Below are positions 688-20,000 of a stretch of 20,000 bases of DNA, piece by piece. A model generated the notes under the pieces. It searched no databases and had not been told where the DNA came from. It saw only the letters and a list, made by a program, of their open reading frames with translations. Position numbers and translations under genes: made by a program. The stretch lies in IMG/VR virus record IMGVR_UViG_3300005512_000015; one strand, 5' to 3'. This DNA comes from an uncultured virus (IMG/VR IMGVR_UViG_3300005512_000015). Its lineage: Duplodnaviria; Heunggongvirae; Uroviricota; Caudoviricetes. Position 1 is the stretch's first letter. Each line of letters starts with the position of its first letter.

Positions 688-717
688 ATTATATCAAATG
701 TTCTATGAAATGTAAAC
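688..717 (-). promoter_or_regulatory. early-type sigma70 promoter GTTTACA-N17-TATAAT
   Basis: Minus strand GTTTACAtttcatagaacatttgaTATAAT; a closely similar element lies at 14856-14885. Confidence 0.8.
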
Positions 718-751: not shown

Positions 752-2002
752 TTACCAATCTTCATCTTGTGGATGTGATTGTGTATCGCAACGTTGTTTA
801 GTATTATCTTGCTTAACGAATGGTGTTGTACTGATAGGTAATTCACCTTCAACGTAAGCTTTAATATTTTTACCAATAAATGTCGCTGTTTTTACTGGAA
901 CATTTTGACTAATGTTGCTCCATAGTTTTTCATCTACTAGATCAAAATCATGTGGATGTCCCATCAACCATAACAGTTCACGAATATTATAACCACGTTC
1001 ATACTTTGGTTGTAACATACGATGTGCAGCTTTATTAACTACAGCATTCATATATTGACCTTGATGAGTGATAAACGTTGAACTATCCCAGAAGTTTTGT
1101 CCAGCATCTGTCTTAGCTTTACAATGTAAACATAATTTCTTAGCTTTTTCATTACCCTTTTTATCGAAATAATCAGCAGCAATATCAAAACCAATTTTTT
1201 GCGTTAATTGTAATGATGTCCAAGTGGATTTCTTATCTTCTGGATCGATTTTCTTAACTGCTTCTAACATCGTATTTACACCTAAGTGATCAAGTGCAAA
1301 GTGGTAATAATCATCTAATGAATCTTCAGCAACTGGAGTTTGTTGATTAGCTGATTCAGGAATCATATCTAAATAATCAGATAGTAATGGAAAATCTTTA
1401 TCTTCATAGTTAAACAACCCAGGATTACCATCACGATAAAACATAATAAATGTACGTTGACGTGATTGAGGAATTCCATGACGAATTGTATTTGTTTTAA
1501 CTAGTTGTGTTGTGTAATTATATTCTTCAGCAATTTCACGAATCCTATTGATAGTTGCTTCACCTGATTTAGTATAAGCAGCTGGAGCATTTTCATAAGC
1601 AACAACTTTAGCTTCAGTTTTCATACCAAGACGAGATAAAGCATACATATTCTGGTTTTGATCGTTATCTGCACAACCTCTTTTCTTAGATCCACATGTA
1701 CTTGAATTCATTTGAGATAATCCAGCACAAACAGCTACGTGCATTAATACATCTAGATTAGTACAAAGTTTATTGAAAAGCTTTTCATCATCTTCACCAA
1801 TAAATGTCTCGTAATCATCTTTCATATTGATTACCGGAATACCAAGTGATCTAGTGTTATTCATGTAGTTGATGTAATGCGAATCATTATCAAATCCAGC
1901 AGTAATAATAGCTACTGGAGGTGTTTCAAATGCTGCTTCAAAACCAATTGACATTCCACCGATGAGAGGCTGTGCAACTGCCCATTTAATATTACCACTC
2001 AT
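752..2002 (-). CDS. divergent DNA cytosine-C5 methyltransferase homolog (416 aa)
   Basis: Motifs in C5-MTase order: I QPLIGG, IV AVCAGLS, VI YENAP, VIII GIPQSRQR, IX RELLWLMGHP, X SQNVP. Start placed at ATG 2002 (MSGNIKW) with GAGG RBS, overlapping the upstream stop. Confidence 0.85.
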   Translation of the reverse strand: MSGNIKWAVAQPLIGGMSIGFEAAFETPPVAIITAGFDNDSHYINYMNNTRSLGIPVINMKDDYETFIGEDDEKLFNKLCTNLDVLMHVAVCAGLSQMNSSTCGSKKRGCADNDQNQNMYALSRLGMKTEAKVVAYENAPAAYTKSGEATINRIREIAEEYNYTTQLVKTNTIRHGIPQSRQRTFIMFYRDGNPGLFNYEDKDFPLLSDYLDMIPESANQQTPVAEDSLDDYYHFALDHLGVNTMLEAVKKIDPEDKKSTWTSLQLTQKIGFDIAADYFDKKGNEKAKKLCLHCKAKTDAGQNFWDSSTFITHQGQYMNAVVNKAAHRMLQPKYERGYNIRELLWLMGHPHDFDLVDEKLWSNISQNVPVKTATFIGKNIKAYVEGELPISTTPFVKQDNTKQRCDTQSHPQDEDW

Positions 2003-3341
2003 CCAATCCAACCTCTTCGTCTTTAATTTCAAATATTTCACGTTTCTTTTTAACGTAATATGAATATTCATTACGTGTACAATCTTTAACATTAAATGAA
2101 AGCGCATTATCAGGGAATGTATTCATTAAAATTAAGAAGTTCTCGTAACCAAATTCACCATGCGTTTTCTTTAGTAGTTCTTCAAATGAAAGTTTGTTTT
2201 CTTCTTTACCAACTTCTAAAATTTCTTTAATGAAATTAGGAACAACAATATCAGCCGATACTTCACGATAAATGAACTCTTTACCATTTTTTACATATTC
2301 TTCAAATAGTTCTTTGTTATTAGCAATTTCAACCATTTGATCATATACATCTGATAAATCTTTTTCAGCACTAAATAATGCAATTTTGTCATTATCGATA
2401 TAACGTTTACCAGTACTGTCTACATTGTTTTCACCATAATGTTTATCAAAAATTGGAATAGCACCATTAATGAAGATTTCCATTTGTGAATATTCCATAC
2501 GATCACCATAGTTTTGAGGCTCTTTTGGTAGCGCAAAACCAGAATAACCAAACATTGTTTTAGCTAGTAATTCTTGACCAACTTCATATGGGTATGGACC
2601 AAACACTGTACAAGTTTCCATGTCTTCTTCAAGGTTATCAAACTTAGGTTGATATACACAATTTGGATGATCGATAATATCGCCTTTAGCTCCAATTGAA
2701 CGCTCAATACCAATTAAACGACCCTTGAATTCATTGTTAGGAATATCTAAGAAATTTAGTACTCTATTAGGACCCTTCATTGATGTCCAACGACCAGCAT
2801 ATAGAACCATTTTTTCTTTTTCTTCAAATGGCACAGCTTTGTAATTGATATTCATTGGCATAGCAAAACGTCTAATACGATCTTGCTTATGATCTAATAT
2901 AGACTTAACGGCTGTAGAATAATCAGTAATTGTACTAAAGTTATAAGTTTGATCACATTGATTAGCAATAGCAACGTGCATTGGAATACGTTCATAGTTT
3001 GCTTTTTTGATTTCGTGCATCATAGCAACAGTGATAGGTTTATTAACCTTCATAATCATATCAAAAAAGAATGACTTAGTTGTACTTGGTTTATTACCAC
3101 TTCCTGGGTATGAGTTATAGATAACAATATCATAGTTGTCGTTTAGCTTTTGAGCCGTTTCTTCTATTTCTTCTGGTAAAAAGTCGATGTACTCTCCAAC
3201 GTGTCCACCACCTCGACCGAAAGTCTTTTCTTTAAGATTATAGATGTCTAAATCTTCTTTGTAAAAATCCTGAAAAACTGCAGCGTATTTTTCAACGCCG
3301 CAACCATCTAAACCTTTACCAAATACGATTGCTATTTTCAT
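1992..3341 (-). CDS. a-gt: DNA alpha-glucosyltransferase-like glycosyltransferase (T4 AGT family, GT-B)
   Basis: Colinear with recalled T4 AGT motifs: GLDGCGVEK (T4 GLEGCGVTK), NSYP, GRWTSMKG (GRTTTWKG), GIERS (GLERS), EYSQME (EYTHLE), GAIPIF (GTIPVF). Confidence 0.85.
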   Translation of the reverse strand: MKIAIVFGKGLDGCGVEKYAAVFQDFYKEDLDIYNLKEKTFGRGGGHVGEYIDFLPEEIEETAQKLNDNYDIVIYNSYPGSGNKPSTTKSFFFDMIMKVNKPITVAMMHEIKKANYERIPMHVAIANQCDQTYNFSTITDYSTAVKSILDHKQDRIRRFAMPMNINYKAVPFEEKEKMVLYAGRWTSMKGPNRVLNFLDIPNNEFKGRLIGIERSIGAKGDIIDHPNCVYQPKFDNLEEDMETCTVFGPYPYEVGQELLAKTMFGYSGFALPKEPQNYGDRMEYSQMEIFINGAIPIFDKHYGENNVDSTGKRYIDNDKIALFSAEKDLSDVYDQMVEIANNKELFEEYVKNGKEFIYREVSADIVVPNFIKEILEVGKEENKLSFEELLKKTHGEFGYENFLILMNTFPDNALSFNVKDCTRNEYSYYVKKKREIFEIKDEEVGLDEW

Positions 3342-6252: not shown

Positions 6253-6609
6253 TTAATATCCTTCTAACATGTGAAGCTCGTCTGGCCTCATTGCTTTATC
6301 ATCTATATAGATTATACCATAAGGTTTATTAAAACTTAGCTCATTATACTTAACACCGTGTTTTTCTAACCATGCTTTAATGCGTGGACGATACATAGCA
6401 ATTGCATCTTCACGAATAGGAGCAGAAAAATGACCACGAGCTGTAAAAATACTAATTTCGTAACCCTTATCGAATAACTCGTTTAACTTATTTATGAGTG
6501 GAAGATTAGGAACTCCTCCTTCAATGTCAGAAGTGTCTGGACCAAAATGTTGGCAAAGTGTATCATCAAAATCTACAACAAAACGTTTGTTTAATTTTTC
6601 TTTAGTCAT
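6253..6609 (-). CDS. capless HAD phosphatase (capsule-biosynthesis EcbF/BcbF type)
   Basis: DFDDT (motif I), FTARG (II), KP (III), YIDDK (IV); start placed at ATG 6609 with AGGA RBS. Confidence 0.85.
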   Translation of the reverse strand: MTKEKLNKRFVVDFDDTLCQHFGPDTSDIEGGVPNLPLINKLNELFDKGYEISIFTARGHFSAPIREDAIAMYRPRIKAWLEKHGVKYNELSFNKPYGIIYIDDKAMRPDELHMLEGY

Positions 6610-7144
6610 TGTTAGTCCTATGTAATGAGCCAAATGATAAACTGATTTTCACTGGCATATTTTTTAAATCTTTAAATAGCGTTTTATCGCACTCTTCATA
6701 ACTAGGCGCTTCTTTCATCTTAGATAAATGAACAATAAGTTGATGAGGTAACGTACAAATAAATTCTAAGTCAGCTGGTAAAGCACCATCAAAGTCTGAA
6801 CTTCTAAAGTGAACAATTACGTGAATGTAATCTCTAACTAAAAGTTGAATCATCGAAATACAATCAGCACTGACGGCAACTAGTCTGCGAGTATCTGTTA
6901 TATCTACGGGACTGTAGTATTTGATCTCTTGTAGACGTGTAAACAATTGATGTTCAAGGTATTTATGAAAGTGTAATTCAAACTTTTTACGAGTAGTTAA
7001 AACTGGTGTTTCATTATCTTTAAAAAAGTCTTCACCTTGTTTAAAGCAATCAAATTGATTGTCAAAATATAGATCGTAATTGAACGCGACAAGTTCTTTA
7101 TCACCATCAAGACTTTCAATTACGAATTCACGTAACCCTTGCAT
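6602..7144 (-). CDS. minimal thymidylate-synthase-fold protein (180 aa)
   Basis: DTRR, CISMIQLLVR (catalytic Cys), FRSSD...LPAD, GSLH in TS motif order. Confidence 0.7.
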   Translation of the reverse strand: MQGLREFVIESLDGDKELVAFNYDLYFDNQFDCFKQGEDFFKDNETPVLTTRKKFELHFHKYLEHQLFTRLQEIKYYSPVDITDTRRLVAVSADCISMIQLLVRDYIHVIVHFRSSDFDGALPADLEFICTLPHQLIVHLSKMKEAPSYEECDKTLFKDLKNMPVKISLSFGSLHRTNND

Positions 7145-7815
7145 TATACTTCCAACGCTTCTAATTGATCAAAGTGACGTTCATAAACATGGATATTTGA
7201 AACTGTCCAAATAAGTTTACCAACTTTAACATTTAAGTCTTTGGCTAGTTGAGCTTGTACATGTTTAGCCCATGCGTAATCATTGTTGTAACCGAATACT
7301 GAATCATTTGAACGCATGATATAATGTGAATGTAATTCACCATCACGAATAAAGAATGAGTTTGCGAATGTACACATAAAATCATTCATACCATCTTTGT
7401 TAAAATCAGTATGCATAGATGGACGATTGTAAATCATAGTTGCTCTACGAGAATCAGGGTTAGCAGACAATTCATCAAAAACATTTTCATATTGATTGCC
7501 ATTTTCTTCAGTATAGATACACCAACCATAGTTTGAATTGATTTCACCATCTTTGGATGAAATAGCTTCCCAGATGGCTGGAGTTTTACCAGGGATATCA
7601 GCAACTTTTAGTGAAGCGCTTTTATACCATTCCAATTCACGCTCAATATATTCATAAGCAGGTGTACGAACAATGTAATCTTCATCAGCTTCAAAAGTAG
7701 CACCAATGATTTCAATTGTTTTAGCACCAGTACGATCAACAGTGAATTCGGCATTGTTGTATGCTTCTTTGAACATTTTACGAATGTCGTTAACTTTAAG
7801 TGTAGTATTAATCAT
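7144..7815 (-). CDS. gp42: dCMP hydroxymethylase (T4 gp42 family)
   Basis: Near-identical blocks to recalled T4 gp42: KTIEIIGA, RELEWYKS, GEINSNYGW, NPDSRR, RPSM, DFMCT, MRSND..FG..NDYAW (Asp = dCMP specificity), HVY.RHF; start at ATG 7815 with AAGGAAAG RBS. Confidence 0.92.
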   Translation of the reverse strand: MINTTLKVNDIRKMFKEAYNNAEFTVDRTGAKTIEIIGATFEADEDYIVRTPAYEYIERELEWYKSASLKVADIPGKTPAIWEAISSKDGEINSNYGWCIYTEENGNQYENVFDELSANPDSRRATMIYNRPSMHTDFNKDGMNDFMCTFANSFFIRDGELHSHYIMRSNDSVFGYNNDYAWAKHVQAQLAKDLNVKVGKLIWTVSNIHVYERHFDQLEALEV

Positions 7816-9880: not shown

Positions 9881-9888
9881 TATTTATA
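9881..9888 (-). promoter_or_regulatory. T4-type late promoter TATAAATA
   Basis: Exact consensus, overlapping the clpP stop, 27 bp upstream of ATG 9853. Confidence 0.75.
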
Positions 9889-10459
9889 TTTTTTCATCAA
9901 TTAACCCTAATTTAACAGCTTCATCTGGGTCCATATAGTAATCTCTTTTTGTTTTTGACTTAATATCTTCTAATGTAGATTTACCTTTAGTGAAATTAGC
10001 AATATCAACCATTAGTTTGTCATCTAGATATTTTGATTCGTGGTAATCAATTTCCATATCATGAATAGTTCCTCTTGTTCCAGAACTAACTGAATGAATC
10101 ATAATTCTACAGTTTTTAGTAGCTTTTCTTGTTCCAGTACCAGCCGCCAATAAATATGCACCCATTGAAGCACACATACCAGTTCCAATTGTATTAACTT
10201 TACAAGGTAATGTATCAATAACATCTTTTATAGCATAACCATCATAAACAGAACCACCCGGTGAATTGATATAAAACTCGATATCTTTATCTGGATCATC
10301 CGCGGCTAACCACATTAATTGCATAATTGCGATGTTTGCTGTGTCTTCATTTACTTCAGTTCCAAAATAAACTATTCTATCAGCCAATAATCTTGAGAAT
10401 ATATCCATTGGTTTCTCAGATCTTCCTGTTTTTTCAATTACATAGGGTACATGTATCAT
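9884..10459 (-). CDS. clpP: ATP-dependent Clp protease proteolytic subunit
   Basis: VPYVIE, DIFSRLL.DRI, YINSPGGSV, CASMG (Ser), IMIH (His), RDYYM (Asp), GLID. Confidence 0.93.
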   Translation of the reverse strand: MIHVPYVIEKTGRSEKPMDIFSRLLADRIVYFGTEVNEDTANIAIMQLMWLAADDPDKDIEFYINSPGGSVYDGYAIKDVIDTLPCKVNTIGTGMCASMGAYLLAAGTGTRKATKNCRIMIHSVSSGTRGTIHDMEIDYHESKYLDDKLMVDIANFTKGKSTLEDIKSKTKRDYYMDPDEAVKLGLIDEKI

Positions 10460-13046: not shown

Positions 13047-14147
13047 TTACTCTTTATCTGAAGCTCGCACAATTCTTTTAAATAATTTCTTATCATTAAG
13101 AGCGGTATCAACCGCTGCGAGCTTTTTGTACAAGTCAGGTTCATCTTTACGATAACCTTTTAGGAACGCTACACAAATCTCAACATCAAGACTATATAGA
13201 TATGCTAAGAAAACAACAATTTCTTCTTTAGGCATGTATTTTTTAGCTAATTGATGAGCTAGTTCAGACTTATGTATAGTTTCTGATTTTTCCATAAGAG
13301 ATTTAATCTTATCTCCAACTTCTTCAAGTGAATCATTTTCAAAGTTGTCATAAAATACTTTTTCAATGTCTTCCATTTTAATAACATTATCATAGTTTTT
13401 AATGAACTGATAAAACTGAGAACCAATTTCACTTCCAACTTTACCTTTCATAATTTGAAAGACAATTTCTTCTGGAATACTATCAATATTATCCATGAAG
13501 TCACCAAGCTTAGCCCAAGAACGAGGTGTTGCGCCAATACCGCCATCTTGTGGAGTCCAGTGTAAACGATCAGGAAACTCAGTCAAGTAATCAAGTACCA
13601 TAGTATTTACATTGTTTGAACGACCCCAAGTTAGGAATGCTTTCAAATCTGGTTCAACATTAATATGTAAGAAACGGTCAAGCAATGCTGGATCCAATTC
13701 ATCAACTTGGTAATCATCAGCAGGGTTAATGGCTGCTACAACCATTGTACGTTGATCTTCAACAATTGGAAGAATATGCTCGTGAATTTGACGTTCTAAT
13801 ACTAATTGCAACGCAGATTGTCGAACATCGATAGGTGCACGGTTCAATTCATCTAAGAATAAAATAGTTGGAATCCTAGCAGCAGCTTTCTTTTCCATAC
13901 GTTGTAACCAAATTGGCTTAGACCAAGTTGTGATAGTATTACCATCAATTTCTATAGTGTGAGGGATACCAATCAAATCACCAACTTCTTGATGAGAAAG
14001 AAATAGTTCTTCAATATGATAGCCGTTCTCTTTAGCAAATTGTTTAACAATCGCAGACTTACCGATACCATGAGGACCTTCCATGATAACAGTATCGTCA
14101 GCCTTTGCGGCAGCTTTAATAACCATCTTAGCAAATTGAATATCCAT
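13047..14147 (-). CDS. MoxR-type AAA+ ATPase
   Basis: Walker A GPHGIGKS, DLIGIP, Walker B LFLDELNRA, AAINP, LDPALLDRF, TPRSW. Confidence 0.9.
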   Translation of the reverse strand: MDIQFAKMVIKAAAKADDTVIMEGPHGIGKSAIVKQFAKENGYHIEELFLSHQEVGDLIGIPHTIEIDGNTITTWSKPIWLQRMEKKAAARIPTILFLDELNRAPIDVRQSALQLVLERQIHEHILPIVEDQRTMVVAAINPADDYQVDELDPALLDRFLHINVEPDLKAFLTWGRSNNVNTMVLDYLTEFPDRLHWTPQDGGIGATPRSWAKLGDFMDNIDSIPEEIVFQIMKGKVGSEIGSQFYQFIKNYDNVIKMEDIEKVFYDNFENDSLEEVGDKIKSLMEKSETIHKSELAHQLAKKYMPKEEIVVFLAYLYSLDVEICVAFLKGYRKDEPDLYKKLAAVDTALNDKKLFKRIVRASDKE

Positions 14148-19573: not shown

Positions 19574-20000
19574 TTAATCCTTTAATTTAAAGGCTTGCAT
19601 CTTTCCATCATTCATTTCACTCATAATTTGACCATTCTTTTCCACTAACCAAATTACTTTTTTATTTAATGCCTTAAAATAATCAATGTCATCATCCCAT
19701 AATCCACCATCAGTTAGTACAACAACTGCTTGATAATCTAGCTTATGTTTCTTTGCCATATCAAGTGCTGGATGTAGATTAGTACCACCATTACCTTTAC
19801 GATCAAAGAGTTTAGTCTTCTTAGATAGTTTTTCTGGTTCATAAGCTTGAGCATCGATTTGAATTAGATCAACTTCAGTTTTAGTGATATCACAAATATG
19901 TTGAACTTCACCAAGAGTTGATAAAACAGCTTGATCATTCATTGAACCAGAAACGTCGGCAACAACTAAAAGATTGAACTTACGATCCTTTGTTTTACCA
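19574..20000 (-). CDS. VWA-domain protein (DUF2201-like), 5' part outside the window
   Basis: Frame is open to the window edge: GKTKDRKFNLLVVADVSGSMND...GNGGT...VLTDG, a complete MIDAS. The track's Met at 19942 is internal. Confidence 0.85.
   Translation of the reverse strand, partial: GKTKDRKFNLLVVADVSGSMNDQAVLSTLGEVQHICDITKTEVDLIQIDAQAYEPEKLSKKTKLFDRKGNGGTNLHPALDMAKKHKLDYQAVVVLTDGGLWDDDIDYFKALNKKVIWLVEKNGQIMSEMNDGKMQAFKLKD

Follow-up and report, generated by a model that had tools for sequence, protein, structure and literature searches.

The closest described relatives of the gene considered here are the DNA cytosine-C5 methyltransferases (MTases) of family PF00145, such as M.HhaI, M.HaeIII and Dcm. 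The gene lies at positions 752 to 2002 of a 20-kb stretch of DNA from an uncultured Caudoviricetes virus (IMG/VR record IMGVR_UViG_3300005512_000015; GC content 26-38%), hereafter called the window, and its neighbours include a gene for a gp42-type hydroxymethylase of deoxycytidine monophosphate (dCMP). Its product and the C5-MTases share a two-domain fold, a Cys after strand 4, the Glu-Asn of motif VI, the Q-x-R-x-R of motif VIII, and motifs IX and X with the Asn of the latter. The subfamily to which it belongs differs from the canonical enzymes in motif I (xPLIGG), in a motif II Glu that appears not to be conserved in place, in Ala or Ser in place of Gln after the catalytic Cys, in ENA-P in place of ENV, and in a largely helical recognition domain that is conserved across the subfamily. 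The genomic partner is also different: it is a dCMP hydroxymethylase here, and not a restriction enzyme.

Several phage systems for modified cytosine share other parts of this arrangement. In the clusters described by Burke et al. 2021 (PMC8256090), a C5-MTase-fold gene accompanies glycosyltransferases for 5-hydroxymethylcytosine (5hmC), and glycosyltransferases of the TET-associated type (TAGT) occur both there and with some relatives of our gene. In those clusters, as described, the MTase makes 5-methylcytosine (5mC) and a TET enzyme (5mYOX) oxidises it, whereas here no TET was found and 5hmC would come from the gp42-type enzyme at the nucleotide level. The T4 system of gp42, gp56 and the alpha- and beta-glucosyltransferases has in common with the window a gp42-type enzyme and an AGT-like transferase. 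The arabosyl-5-hydroxycytosine clusters of RB69 and DLP3, as presented in PMC13326640, share the HAD phosphatase and the fusion of a nucleotidyltransferase with a kinase. In contrast to the window, T-even and RB69-type clusters have no MTase (0 of 18 Mosigvirus-type, 5-hydroxy loci, a weak control that covers one narrow enterobacterial clade), and the thymidylate synthase (TS) homolog of the window keeps Asp169 and is not of the 5-hydroxy type.

Two further systems bear on the cofactor pocket. CmoX, the DNA cytosine C5-carboxymethyltransferase of Synechococcus phage S-B43 (PMC12783734; PDB 8yf3), is likewise a phage C5-MTase homolog with a repurposed pocket. According to its structural description, it keeps the Phe, Glu and Asp contacts and has, at the position of M.HhaI Asn304, an Arg to which the carboxyl group binds, whereas our subfamily keeps the Asn (233 of 249 members). 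The engineered M.HhaI variant Q82A/Y254S/N304A (PMC3526304) has a small residue after the catalytic Cys that opens space for the transferred group. That triple variant is reported as a laboratory product for synthetic analogs of S-adenosylmethionine (SAM), whereas the change in our subfamily is natural and subfamily-wide, and the Asn304 position is kept.

We found that the pairing of MTase and hydroxymethylase genes is conserved in hundreds of viral contigs and is no quirk of the phage in the window. Judged from gene content, the MTase subfamily is a regular accessory of T4-type cassettes predicted to make 5-hydroxymethyl-dCMP and then to glycosylate the DNA. The explanation that we favour, to which we give a probability of roughly 0.4, is that the subfamily is active and serves as a safety net after replication, modifying those cytosines that replacement through the nucleotide pool has missed.

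Results

Linkage of the MTase subfamily to gp42-type enzymes and DNA glycosyltransferases

The MTase subfamily is large and has so far been seen mainly in viral contigs. A word-index search with the window protein returned 151 homologs, nearly all of them unnamed. An exhaustive profile search, counted as representatives at 50% identity, gave 4538 proteins at E <= 1e-3, 927 at 1e-10 and 437 at 1e-30. Relatives of the MTase are encoded in 494 stretches of viral contigs in IMG/VR, and 79 loci (L numbers below) were retrieved.

The linkage of the subfamily to gp42-type enzymes and DNA glycosyltransferases is conserved. We examined 82 loci, not dereplicated: the 79 without the window fragment L002 (L001, the same fragment, was left out), together with Pseudoalteromonas phage XG4, cyanophage S-TIM54, Bacillus phage G and the window. 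A TS homolog was present in 24 of the 26 loci with at least 8 kb upstream of the MTase gene (the exceptions are L042 and L050) and in 40 of the 47 with at least 5 kb, usually 3.4-6 kb upstream and on the same strand. Asp169 and Asp177 (E. coli ThyA numbering) were found in 43 of 43 scorable homologs, and Asp143 in 41 of 42, S-TIM54 having Cys.

The gene immediately upstream of the MTase nearly always encodes a glycosyltransferase, and the families found there are unrelated to each other. A GT-B-like cluster, c1, directly precedes the MTase in 55 loci, and its XG4 member matches Glyco_trans_1_2. The others are AGT (the window, L027, L090, L122), TAGT (L111, L129), GT4 (L100, L094) and a weakly beta-glucosyltransferase-like protein (L153). 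Downstream of the MTase are the T4-type replication genes for exonuclease, gp45, gp44/62 and RegA.

The module set recurs in XG4, S-TIM54 and phage G at 22-34% MTase identity. In XG4 (34%) the order is TS homolog, HAD, nucleotidyltransferase-kinase, two glycosyltransferases, MTase and a gp56 homolog. In phage G (24%), genes for a kinase, a HAD protein, a nucleotidyltransferase and an AGT lie within 8 kb of gp301, and the gp42-type TS homolog is 13 kb away. In S-TIM54 (27%), a dCMP-type TS homolog lies 2 kb away on the opposite strand.

We also started from the hydroxymethylase, using the 80 gp42-type loci nearest to the window enzyme, 33 of which had at least 8 kb downstream. The MTase was present in 20 of these 33 (26 of 42 with at least 6.5 kb), and the MTase-free loci were the more distant ones, indicating that the MTase is a frequent accessory rather than a core part. 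Eight records of cultured phages carry a relative.

Full-text literature searches, with preprint supplements outside their scope, returned no description of a C5-MTase-fold gene linked to a TS-type hydroxymethylase. Looking up the terms in the papers on phage TET (PMC8256090), MetaGPA (PMC8670742), pelagimyophages and 5-hydroxycytosine (PMC13326640), and in a glycosyltransferase preprint, likewise gave no match. The MetaGPA supplement lists DNA_methylase in 6 selected versus 846 unselected contigs, which is no enrichment among cytosine-modified contigs, a count that refers to the whole Pfam family and not to the subfamily.

Fused forms of the MTase were uninformative. A word-index search for longer, fused MTase proteins found none; the exhaustive search found a few longer members, and Pfam scans of six of them gave PF00145 alone in five and an extra zf-CXXC in one. 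The subfamily protein P0194 (598 amino acids, aa) has a C-terminal CXXC zinc finger (PF02008, 6.6e-07), a domain that in eukaryotic proteins reads unmethylated CpG. Locus L027 has tandem subfamily paralogs (L027:5951-7150 and L027:7152-8321) after gp42 and AGT genes, both with PC[AS]GLS, ENAP and QxRxR. Two clusters with a gp42-type enzyme and an MTase contain the helical domain of 5-hmdU DNA kinase (PF18723; L153:12807-13880 and L124:15199-16290), which hints at phosphorylation of 5hmC on DNA as a further hypermodification route.

Fold and catalytic residues of the MTase-like protein

The product of 752..2002 has the two-domain fold of a C5-cytosine methyltransferase. It matches PF00145 in a Pfam scan at 60.3 bits (cut-off 22; E 2.8e-16), and an AlphaFold2 (AF2) model from a 40-sequence alignment has a mean predicted local distance difference test score (pLDDT) of 94 and a predicted template modelling (TM) score (pTM) of 0.92. 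The top Foldseek matches of this model in the PDB are all C5-MTases: DIM2, MET1, M.HaeIII (E 5.8e-14; TM by target 0.67), CmoX (8yf3, rank 6), DNMT1 and M.HhaI. In BFVD, gp301 of Bacillus phage G is by far the closest match (TM 0.74). The gene lies within an open reading frame (ORF) of 752..2107, and the start at 2002 that had been assigned to it holds: there is an ATG at 2002 with GAGG ahead of it, homologs begin at MSG or MTG in agreement with this position, and the start overlaps the stop of the upstream glycosyltransferase gene (1992-1994) by 11 nt. The resulting protein has 416 aa.

The residues of covalent catalysis, Cys92, Glu137, Arg181 and Arg183, are intact as judged from the alignments, as the initial annotation had claimed of the catalytic Cys, ENxP and QxRxR. 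The motifs of the window protein are QPLIGG (residues 11-16), AVC92AGLS, E137-N-A-P, P-Q179-S-R181-Q-R183 and Q366-N-V-P-V, and the subfamily signature is xPLIGG / [PVI]C[AS]GLS / ENAP / HGIPQxRxRTF / QNVPV. We measured conservation in 252 members, the window protein and 251 database proteins of 300-520 aa. Cys92 is kept in all 246 members aligned there; E137, R181 and R183 are present in all 252, N138 and A139 in 251, Q179 in 250 and H175 in 249.

The position of the catalytic Cys depends on the alignment register. Pairwise, local HMMER alignments to M.HhaI start at the subfamily's 'vCaGLS' and place Cys92 on HhaI Cys76 and the variable Q97 at the catalytic position. We rejected the register with Q97 and take Cys92 as the catalytic Cys because the AF2 model has a strand at 85-88 followed by V-A-V-C92, because DVLMHVAVCAGLS pairs with DVLLAGFPCQPFS in both hhalign and MAFFT alignments with E. 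coli Dcm, and because Cys92 is invariant, in contrast to position 97, which varies.

The initial annotation had also singled out Val in place of Pro ahead of the Cys in motif IV. The Val is present, but it is not special, since this residue is P in 85, V in 73 and I in 52 members. The residue after the Cys is more telling: it is Ala in 149 members and Ser in 89 (Ala93 in the window protein), so that the canonical Gln of P-C-Q is absent.

These residues make the protein look catalytically competent. We considered whether it could instead be a catalytically dead DNA-binding relic, as its degenerate cofactor motifs might suggest. However, the nucleophile and the base-activating residues are invariant or nearly so in the 252 members, down to 26% identity to the window protein, and we regard a relic as barely credible. 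A dead protein was one of two outcomes named at the outset as able to overturn the assignment of an unusual enzyme; the other, a TET enzyme elsewhere in the genome, is taken up below and is similarly improbable.

The cofactor pocket

The cofactor side of the protein is not canonical, as the initial annotation had noted from QPLIGG in place of FxGxGG, and we found this to hold across the subfamily. Motif I is Q in 144 members, I in 50 or V in 30, followed by P (199), L (235), I and GG (236 of 237), and it aligns with F-A-G-I-G-G of Dcm in hhalign; the window protein has neither the Phe nor the first Gly of the canonical F-x-G-x-G-G. The motif II Glu of Dcm pairs with G36, a variable position, and a conserved N39-D/E40 (222 members) follows 3-4 residues on. 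Motif VI has ENA (Ala139) in place of ENV throughout the subfamily.

Other features are signs that an adenosyl cofactor is still bound: the GG of motif I, an aromatic residue at position 37 (F in 164 members), D, N or E directly after strand 3 (210 of 237) and N39-D/E40. In the description of the CmoX structure (PMC12783734), Phe25 and Phe48 stack on the adenine, which Asp69 also binds; the ribose is bound by Glu47, and Arg350 takes the place of Asn304 of HhaI. We read the subfamily features as adenosyl-binding because they match the roles which that description gives to the motif III Asp and to the aromatic residue that follows the motif II Glu. The motif X Asn (Asn367 in the window protein) is kept. 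We therefore rejected carboxymethyl transfer of the CmoX type, because the key Arg is absent, the Asn is kept, and neither a CmoA-like gene nor another methyltransferase-type family was found among the window ORFs with Pfam and PHROG.

These changes suggest a widened space for C5 and the donor group and a SAM site that is canonical only in part, a view that draws its residue roles from CmoX (PMC12783734) and from M.HhaI engineering (PMC3526304). The latter work describes Gln82, Tyr254 and Asn304 of M.HhaI as crowding the transferred group, with Q82A lowering methylation about 16-fold and raising the transfer of a larger group 4-fold.

The loss throughout the subfamily of the canonical motif I contacts with SAM, and apparently of those of motif II, would also suit an enzyme that modifies leftover cytosines with a donor other than SAM, for example by hydroxymethylation from formaldehyde or methylene-tetrahydrofolate, after which the neighbouring glycosyltransferase would finish the modification. 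Liutkeviciute and co-workers reportedly found in 2009 that C5-MTases add aldehydes to cytosine in vitro. Such a product would suit the pathway and explain both the exclusive link to hydroxymethylase-type TS homologs and the adjacent glycosyltransferases. However, there is no sign of folate binding, the Arg that marks carboxy-SAM in CmoX is absent, and both the motif III-like acid and the motif X Asn point to continued binding of a ligand of the adenosyl-methionine type. We think that a donor other than SAM is decidedly improbable.

The recognition domain of the window protein is largely helical, and the target-recognition region can be aligned across the whole subfamily (W305 in 210 members, D306 in 215, R336 in 243). 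Such a shared region fits a single specificity, probably a broad one.

The gp42-type enzyme of the window

The TS homolog of the window is, by its residues and identity, a gp42-type, dCMP-specific enzyme predicted to form a hydroxymethyl product. A gp42-type enzyme in the same operon as the MTase had been claimed initially, and its match to the T4 structure (E 1.9e-73 to 1b49) and the tight packing of the same-strand genes bear this out. According to PMC13326640 (2026), N177D marks a dCMP substrate, L143D/E correlates with a hydroxymethyl over a methyl product, and D169N marks the 5-hydroxy enzymes; the TS homologs of RB69 and DLP3 are described there as making 5-hydroxy-dCMP. In the window enzyme, all three positions (L143, D169 and N177 of E. 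coli ThyA) are occupied by Asp, which makes it the hydroxymethyl type. Two comparisons behaved as expected: the enzyme of phage mobillu has E143, N169 and D177, and a canonical ThyA of a related complete phage has Leu143 and Asn177. We rejected an RB69-type 5-hydroxy-dCMP synthase for the window, because the enzyme, at about 54% identity, is far closer to T4-group gp42 than to the Mosigvirus enzymes (about 24%), and because Asp169 is kept.

Two observations concern TS homologs of related loci. The 'ThyA' of S-TIM54 (L010:6099-6941), the sole TS homolog of that phage, has Asp at 177, as in dCMP-type enzymes, and Cys at 143. The TS homolog has in-frame stops in two genomes, three TAG in G003 (L008) and five TGA in G008 (L021), and the MTase ORF is split or shortened under translation table 11, which suggests stop-codon recoding.

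TET and deoxycytidine triphosphatase genes

As initially reported, no TET or 2-oxoglutarate (2OG) oxygenase is encoded in the window: a Pfam scan of its 33 ORFs found no member of either family. Tet_JBP (PF12851) was found in none of five related genomes, two of them rated complete. These results bear on whether the MTase could be an ordinary C5-MTase whose product is passed to a TET-type dioxygenase from another part of the genome. Phage clusters of C5-MTase, TET and glycosyltransferase do exist (PMC8256090), and the type of glycosyltransferase that adjoins the MTase in L111 and L129 is the one that Pfam names 'TET-associated glycosyltransferase'. Against this arrangement are the two negative searches and the hydroxymethyl group already supplied by the gp42-type enzyme, and we judge that it almost certainly does not apply.

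Genes for a gp56-type deoxycytidine triphosphatase (dCTPase) lie beside the MTase or its cluster in L005, L006/L088, L009 (XG4), L027, L111, L117 and L158, and the MTase-free locus L127 also has one. Homologs of RB14 gp56 were found in three of the five related genomes (G003, 2.2e-44; XG4, 1.4e-36; phage G, weak), with no match in G002 or S-TIM54, and PF08761 scored above its cut-off in one of the five. The 20-kb window has no gp56 homolog that we could find; a pyrophosphatase of family PF18909 adjoins gp42 instead. A PF18909 scan of the five genomes gave no match, controls included, and is thus uninformative. The window pyrophosphatase is a candidate for clearing deoxycytidine triphosphate (dCTP), a role that we only infer because no similarity to T4-type gp56 was found.

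What the MTase may act on

The initial annotation had offered two options, methylation of residual cytosines after partial substitution, or a repurposed activity on hmC or with a non-SAM donor; we lean towards the first. We favour an active MTase that serves as a safety net after replication. The enzyme would flip a cytosine ring out of the phage DNA, Cys92 would attack C6, and a one-carbon group would be placed on C5. The substrate would most likely be the minority of cytosines that escape replacement in the nucleotide pool, so that no bare cytosine is left open to cutting by nucleases of the host or of the T4-like phage itself. The donor would most likely be SAM, held in a rebuilt pocket, and the product 5mC; the donor is uncertain because Phe is gone from motif I and Gln from motif IV, and the Glu of motif II has apparently been replaced as well.

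Several findings weigh against this explanation. With their gp56-type dCTPase genes, the gp42-type cassettes look built for complete replacement of cytosine, and with a pyrophosphatase beside gp42 in the window, little bare cytosine may be left. If replacement is as complete as it appears, a plain cytosine methylase is hard to justify. The pocket for the cofactor and C5 is altered across the subfamily in motif I, in the residue that follows the Cys and apparently in the motif II Glu, and the change in M.HhaI comparable to that after the Cys, Q82A, is reported to favour larger groups at the expense of methylation (PMC3526304). Nor would a plain methylase need an exclusive tie to hydroxymethylase-type TS homologs, yet all 43 that could be scored are of this type.

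The main rival is chemistry on 5hmC itself, possibly at unglycosylated sites, beginning with an attack of Cys92 on C6 of 5hmC. Formaldehyde might then leave, turning the base at chosen sites into C or, if SAM takes part, into 5mC; or the hydroxymethyl group might be dehydrated to an exocyclic methylene that is trapped by a bound nucleophile. Either way, a glycosyl-hmC genome would gain a second modification that is specific to sequence. This rival would account for the exclusively hydroxymethylase-type TS homologs, for the DNA glycosyltransferase that nearly always adjoins the MTase whatever its family, and for the adjoining dCTPase genes. It would also suit the smaller residues around C5 and the transferred group (Gln to Ala or Ser, ENV to ENA), a pocket that in M.HhaI is lined by Q82 (PMC3526304). 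There are precedents in vitro: M.MpeI is reported to transfer methyl groups to 5hmC DNA at a low, Cys-dependent level, which its authors explain by release of formaldehyde and subsequent remethylation; for other MTases, dehydroxymethylation without SAM is reported there (PMC11347137). However, the precedents are side activities and slow ones, and there is no partner gene, conserved from clade to clade, whose product might provide a nucleophile or a special cofactor. The hydroxyl in question is also the one for which the glycosyltransferases compete, and the subfamily retains the motif X Asn along with the features for adenosyl binding. To our knowledge, no natural enzyme acts on 5hmC in this manner. 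We consider it rather unlikely that 5hmC is the substrate in this way.

A broader proposition is that the subfamily is the first natural group of C5-MTase-fold enzymes to have 5hmC in DNA as its substrate or its product, with Cys92 catalysis exchanging, removing or installing the hydroxymethyl group at defined sites. We hold this only tentatively and would not bet on it at even odds. If the 5hmC reading is true, a second layer of modification would be written into genomes that are otherwise uniformly glycosyl-hmC.

The apparent completeness of replacement could also mean that the target is not phage DNA at all, and that host DNA or RNA is methylated during host takeover, the place in the operon coming from DNA-modification genes that travel together. 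With gp42 and dCTPase genes present, phage DNA may hold no free cytosine, whereas host DNA does, and the core C5-MTase chemistry is intact. However, the operon position, after a glycosyltransferase and in several loci before a dCTPase, is conserved in XG4 and the window clade and more loosely in phage G, which is hard to explain without a shared substrate. In addition, nothing in the sequence points to RNA. We find a host target improbable.

The operon and other features of the window

Every gene of the window is on the minus strand, and eight of them, from 8131 to 752, are packed with overlaps or with gaps of 0-2 nt (Table 1). The MTase-like gene is the last, and its start overlapping the preceding stop indicates that it is probably coupled to the operon in translation. 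A promoter-like site directly after the MTase stop is suggestive of the operon end, although over the whole window such sites were no more numerous than in shuffled sequences.

Table 1. Operon genes and the promoter-like site, listed from the operon start.
Feature	Coordinates	Strand	Evidence
All-alpha nucleoside triphosphate (NTP) pyrophosphohydrolase domain protein, 107 aa	7808..8131	-	PF18909 3.1e-28; phrog_801
gp42-type dCMP hydroxymethylase	7144..7815	-	E 1.9e-73 to T4 PDB 1b49; ORF to 7863, T4 gp42 homology from Met17
Truncated TS-like protein, 180 aa; Cys, RSSD and PAD kept	6602..7144	-	ESM Atlas features 0.94; structure TM 0.67-0.71 to TS-family clusters
Small HAD-like phosphatase, 126 aa	6253..6633	-	phrog_1238 1.3e-22; phrog_415; counterpart of DLP3 gp81 and RB69 gp51
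Fused nucleotidyltransferase and APH-like kinase, 507 aa	4729..6252	-	PF00483 8.9e-16, PF12804, PF01636; type of sugar-1-kinase with nucleoside diphosphate (NDP)-sugar pyrophosphorylase
Second GT-B-like glycosyltransferase candidate, 460 aa	3344..4726	-	ESM Atlas feature and structure neighbours of GT1/GT4 type, TM 0.51-0.60; a lead only
T4 alpha-glucosyltransferase-like DNA glycosyltransferase, 449 aa	1992..3341	-	phrog_2888 4.1e-67; PF11440 AGT 26.2 bits, cut-off 25
C5-cytosine-MTase-fold protein, 416 aa	752..2002	-	PF00145 2.8e-16; AF2 pLDDT 94; Foldseek HaeIII, HhaI, DNMT1, CmoX; subfamily conservation
Promoter-like site TTTACA, 17-nt spacer, TG-TATAAT	688..716	-	11 of 12 matches, TG present; directly after the MTase stop

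Three operon products call for comment. The 180-aa TS-like protein aligns only weakly with gp42 in hhalign (E 0.17), pairing C95 with the catalytic Cys and FRSSD with MRSND; it may be a second pyrimidine-C5 enzyme or a regulatory paralog, and homologs occupy the same position in L003, L004 and L007. The nucleotidyltransferase-kinase architecture is assigned to the synthesis of uridine diphosphate (UDP)-arabinose in RB69 and DLP3 in Table 1 of PMC13326640. The 460-aa candidate glycosyltransferase gave no match in Pfam and PHROG scans. Elsewhere in the window, and unrelated to the MTase, are genes for a ClpP-family protease (9884-10459; PF00574, 9e-51), a MoxR-type AAA ATPase (13047-14147) and a DUF2201 VWA-like protein (19574-19942), all on the minus strand.

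Discussion

A C5 enzyme encoded within an operon whose other genes pre-empt C5 is a biochemical contradiction, and it makes the canonical reaction doubtful. Hundreds of aquatic phage contigs show this contradiction, as do three cultured lineages, XG4, the cyanophage S-TIM5 group and Bacillus phage G, and with these cultured carriers the question is directly testable. The enzyme might also become a tool for site-specific handling of 5hmC. The finding may mean that total base replacement in these phages includes a quality-control step that has gone unrecognised, or it may point to a new natural chemistry on 5hmC, of a kind known until now only from side reactions of methyltransferases in the laboratory. 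Whichever holds, it would bear on how phages escape restriction and modification-dependent defences.

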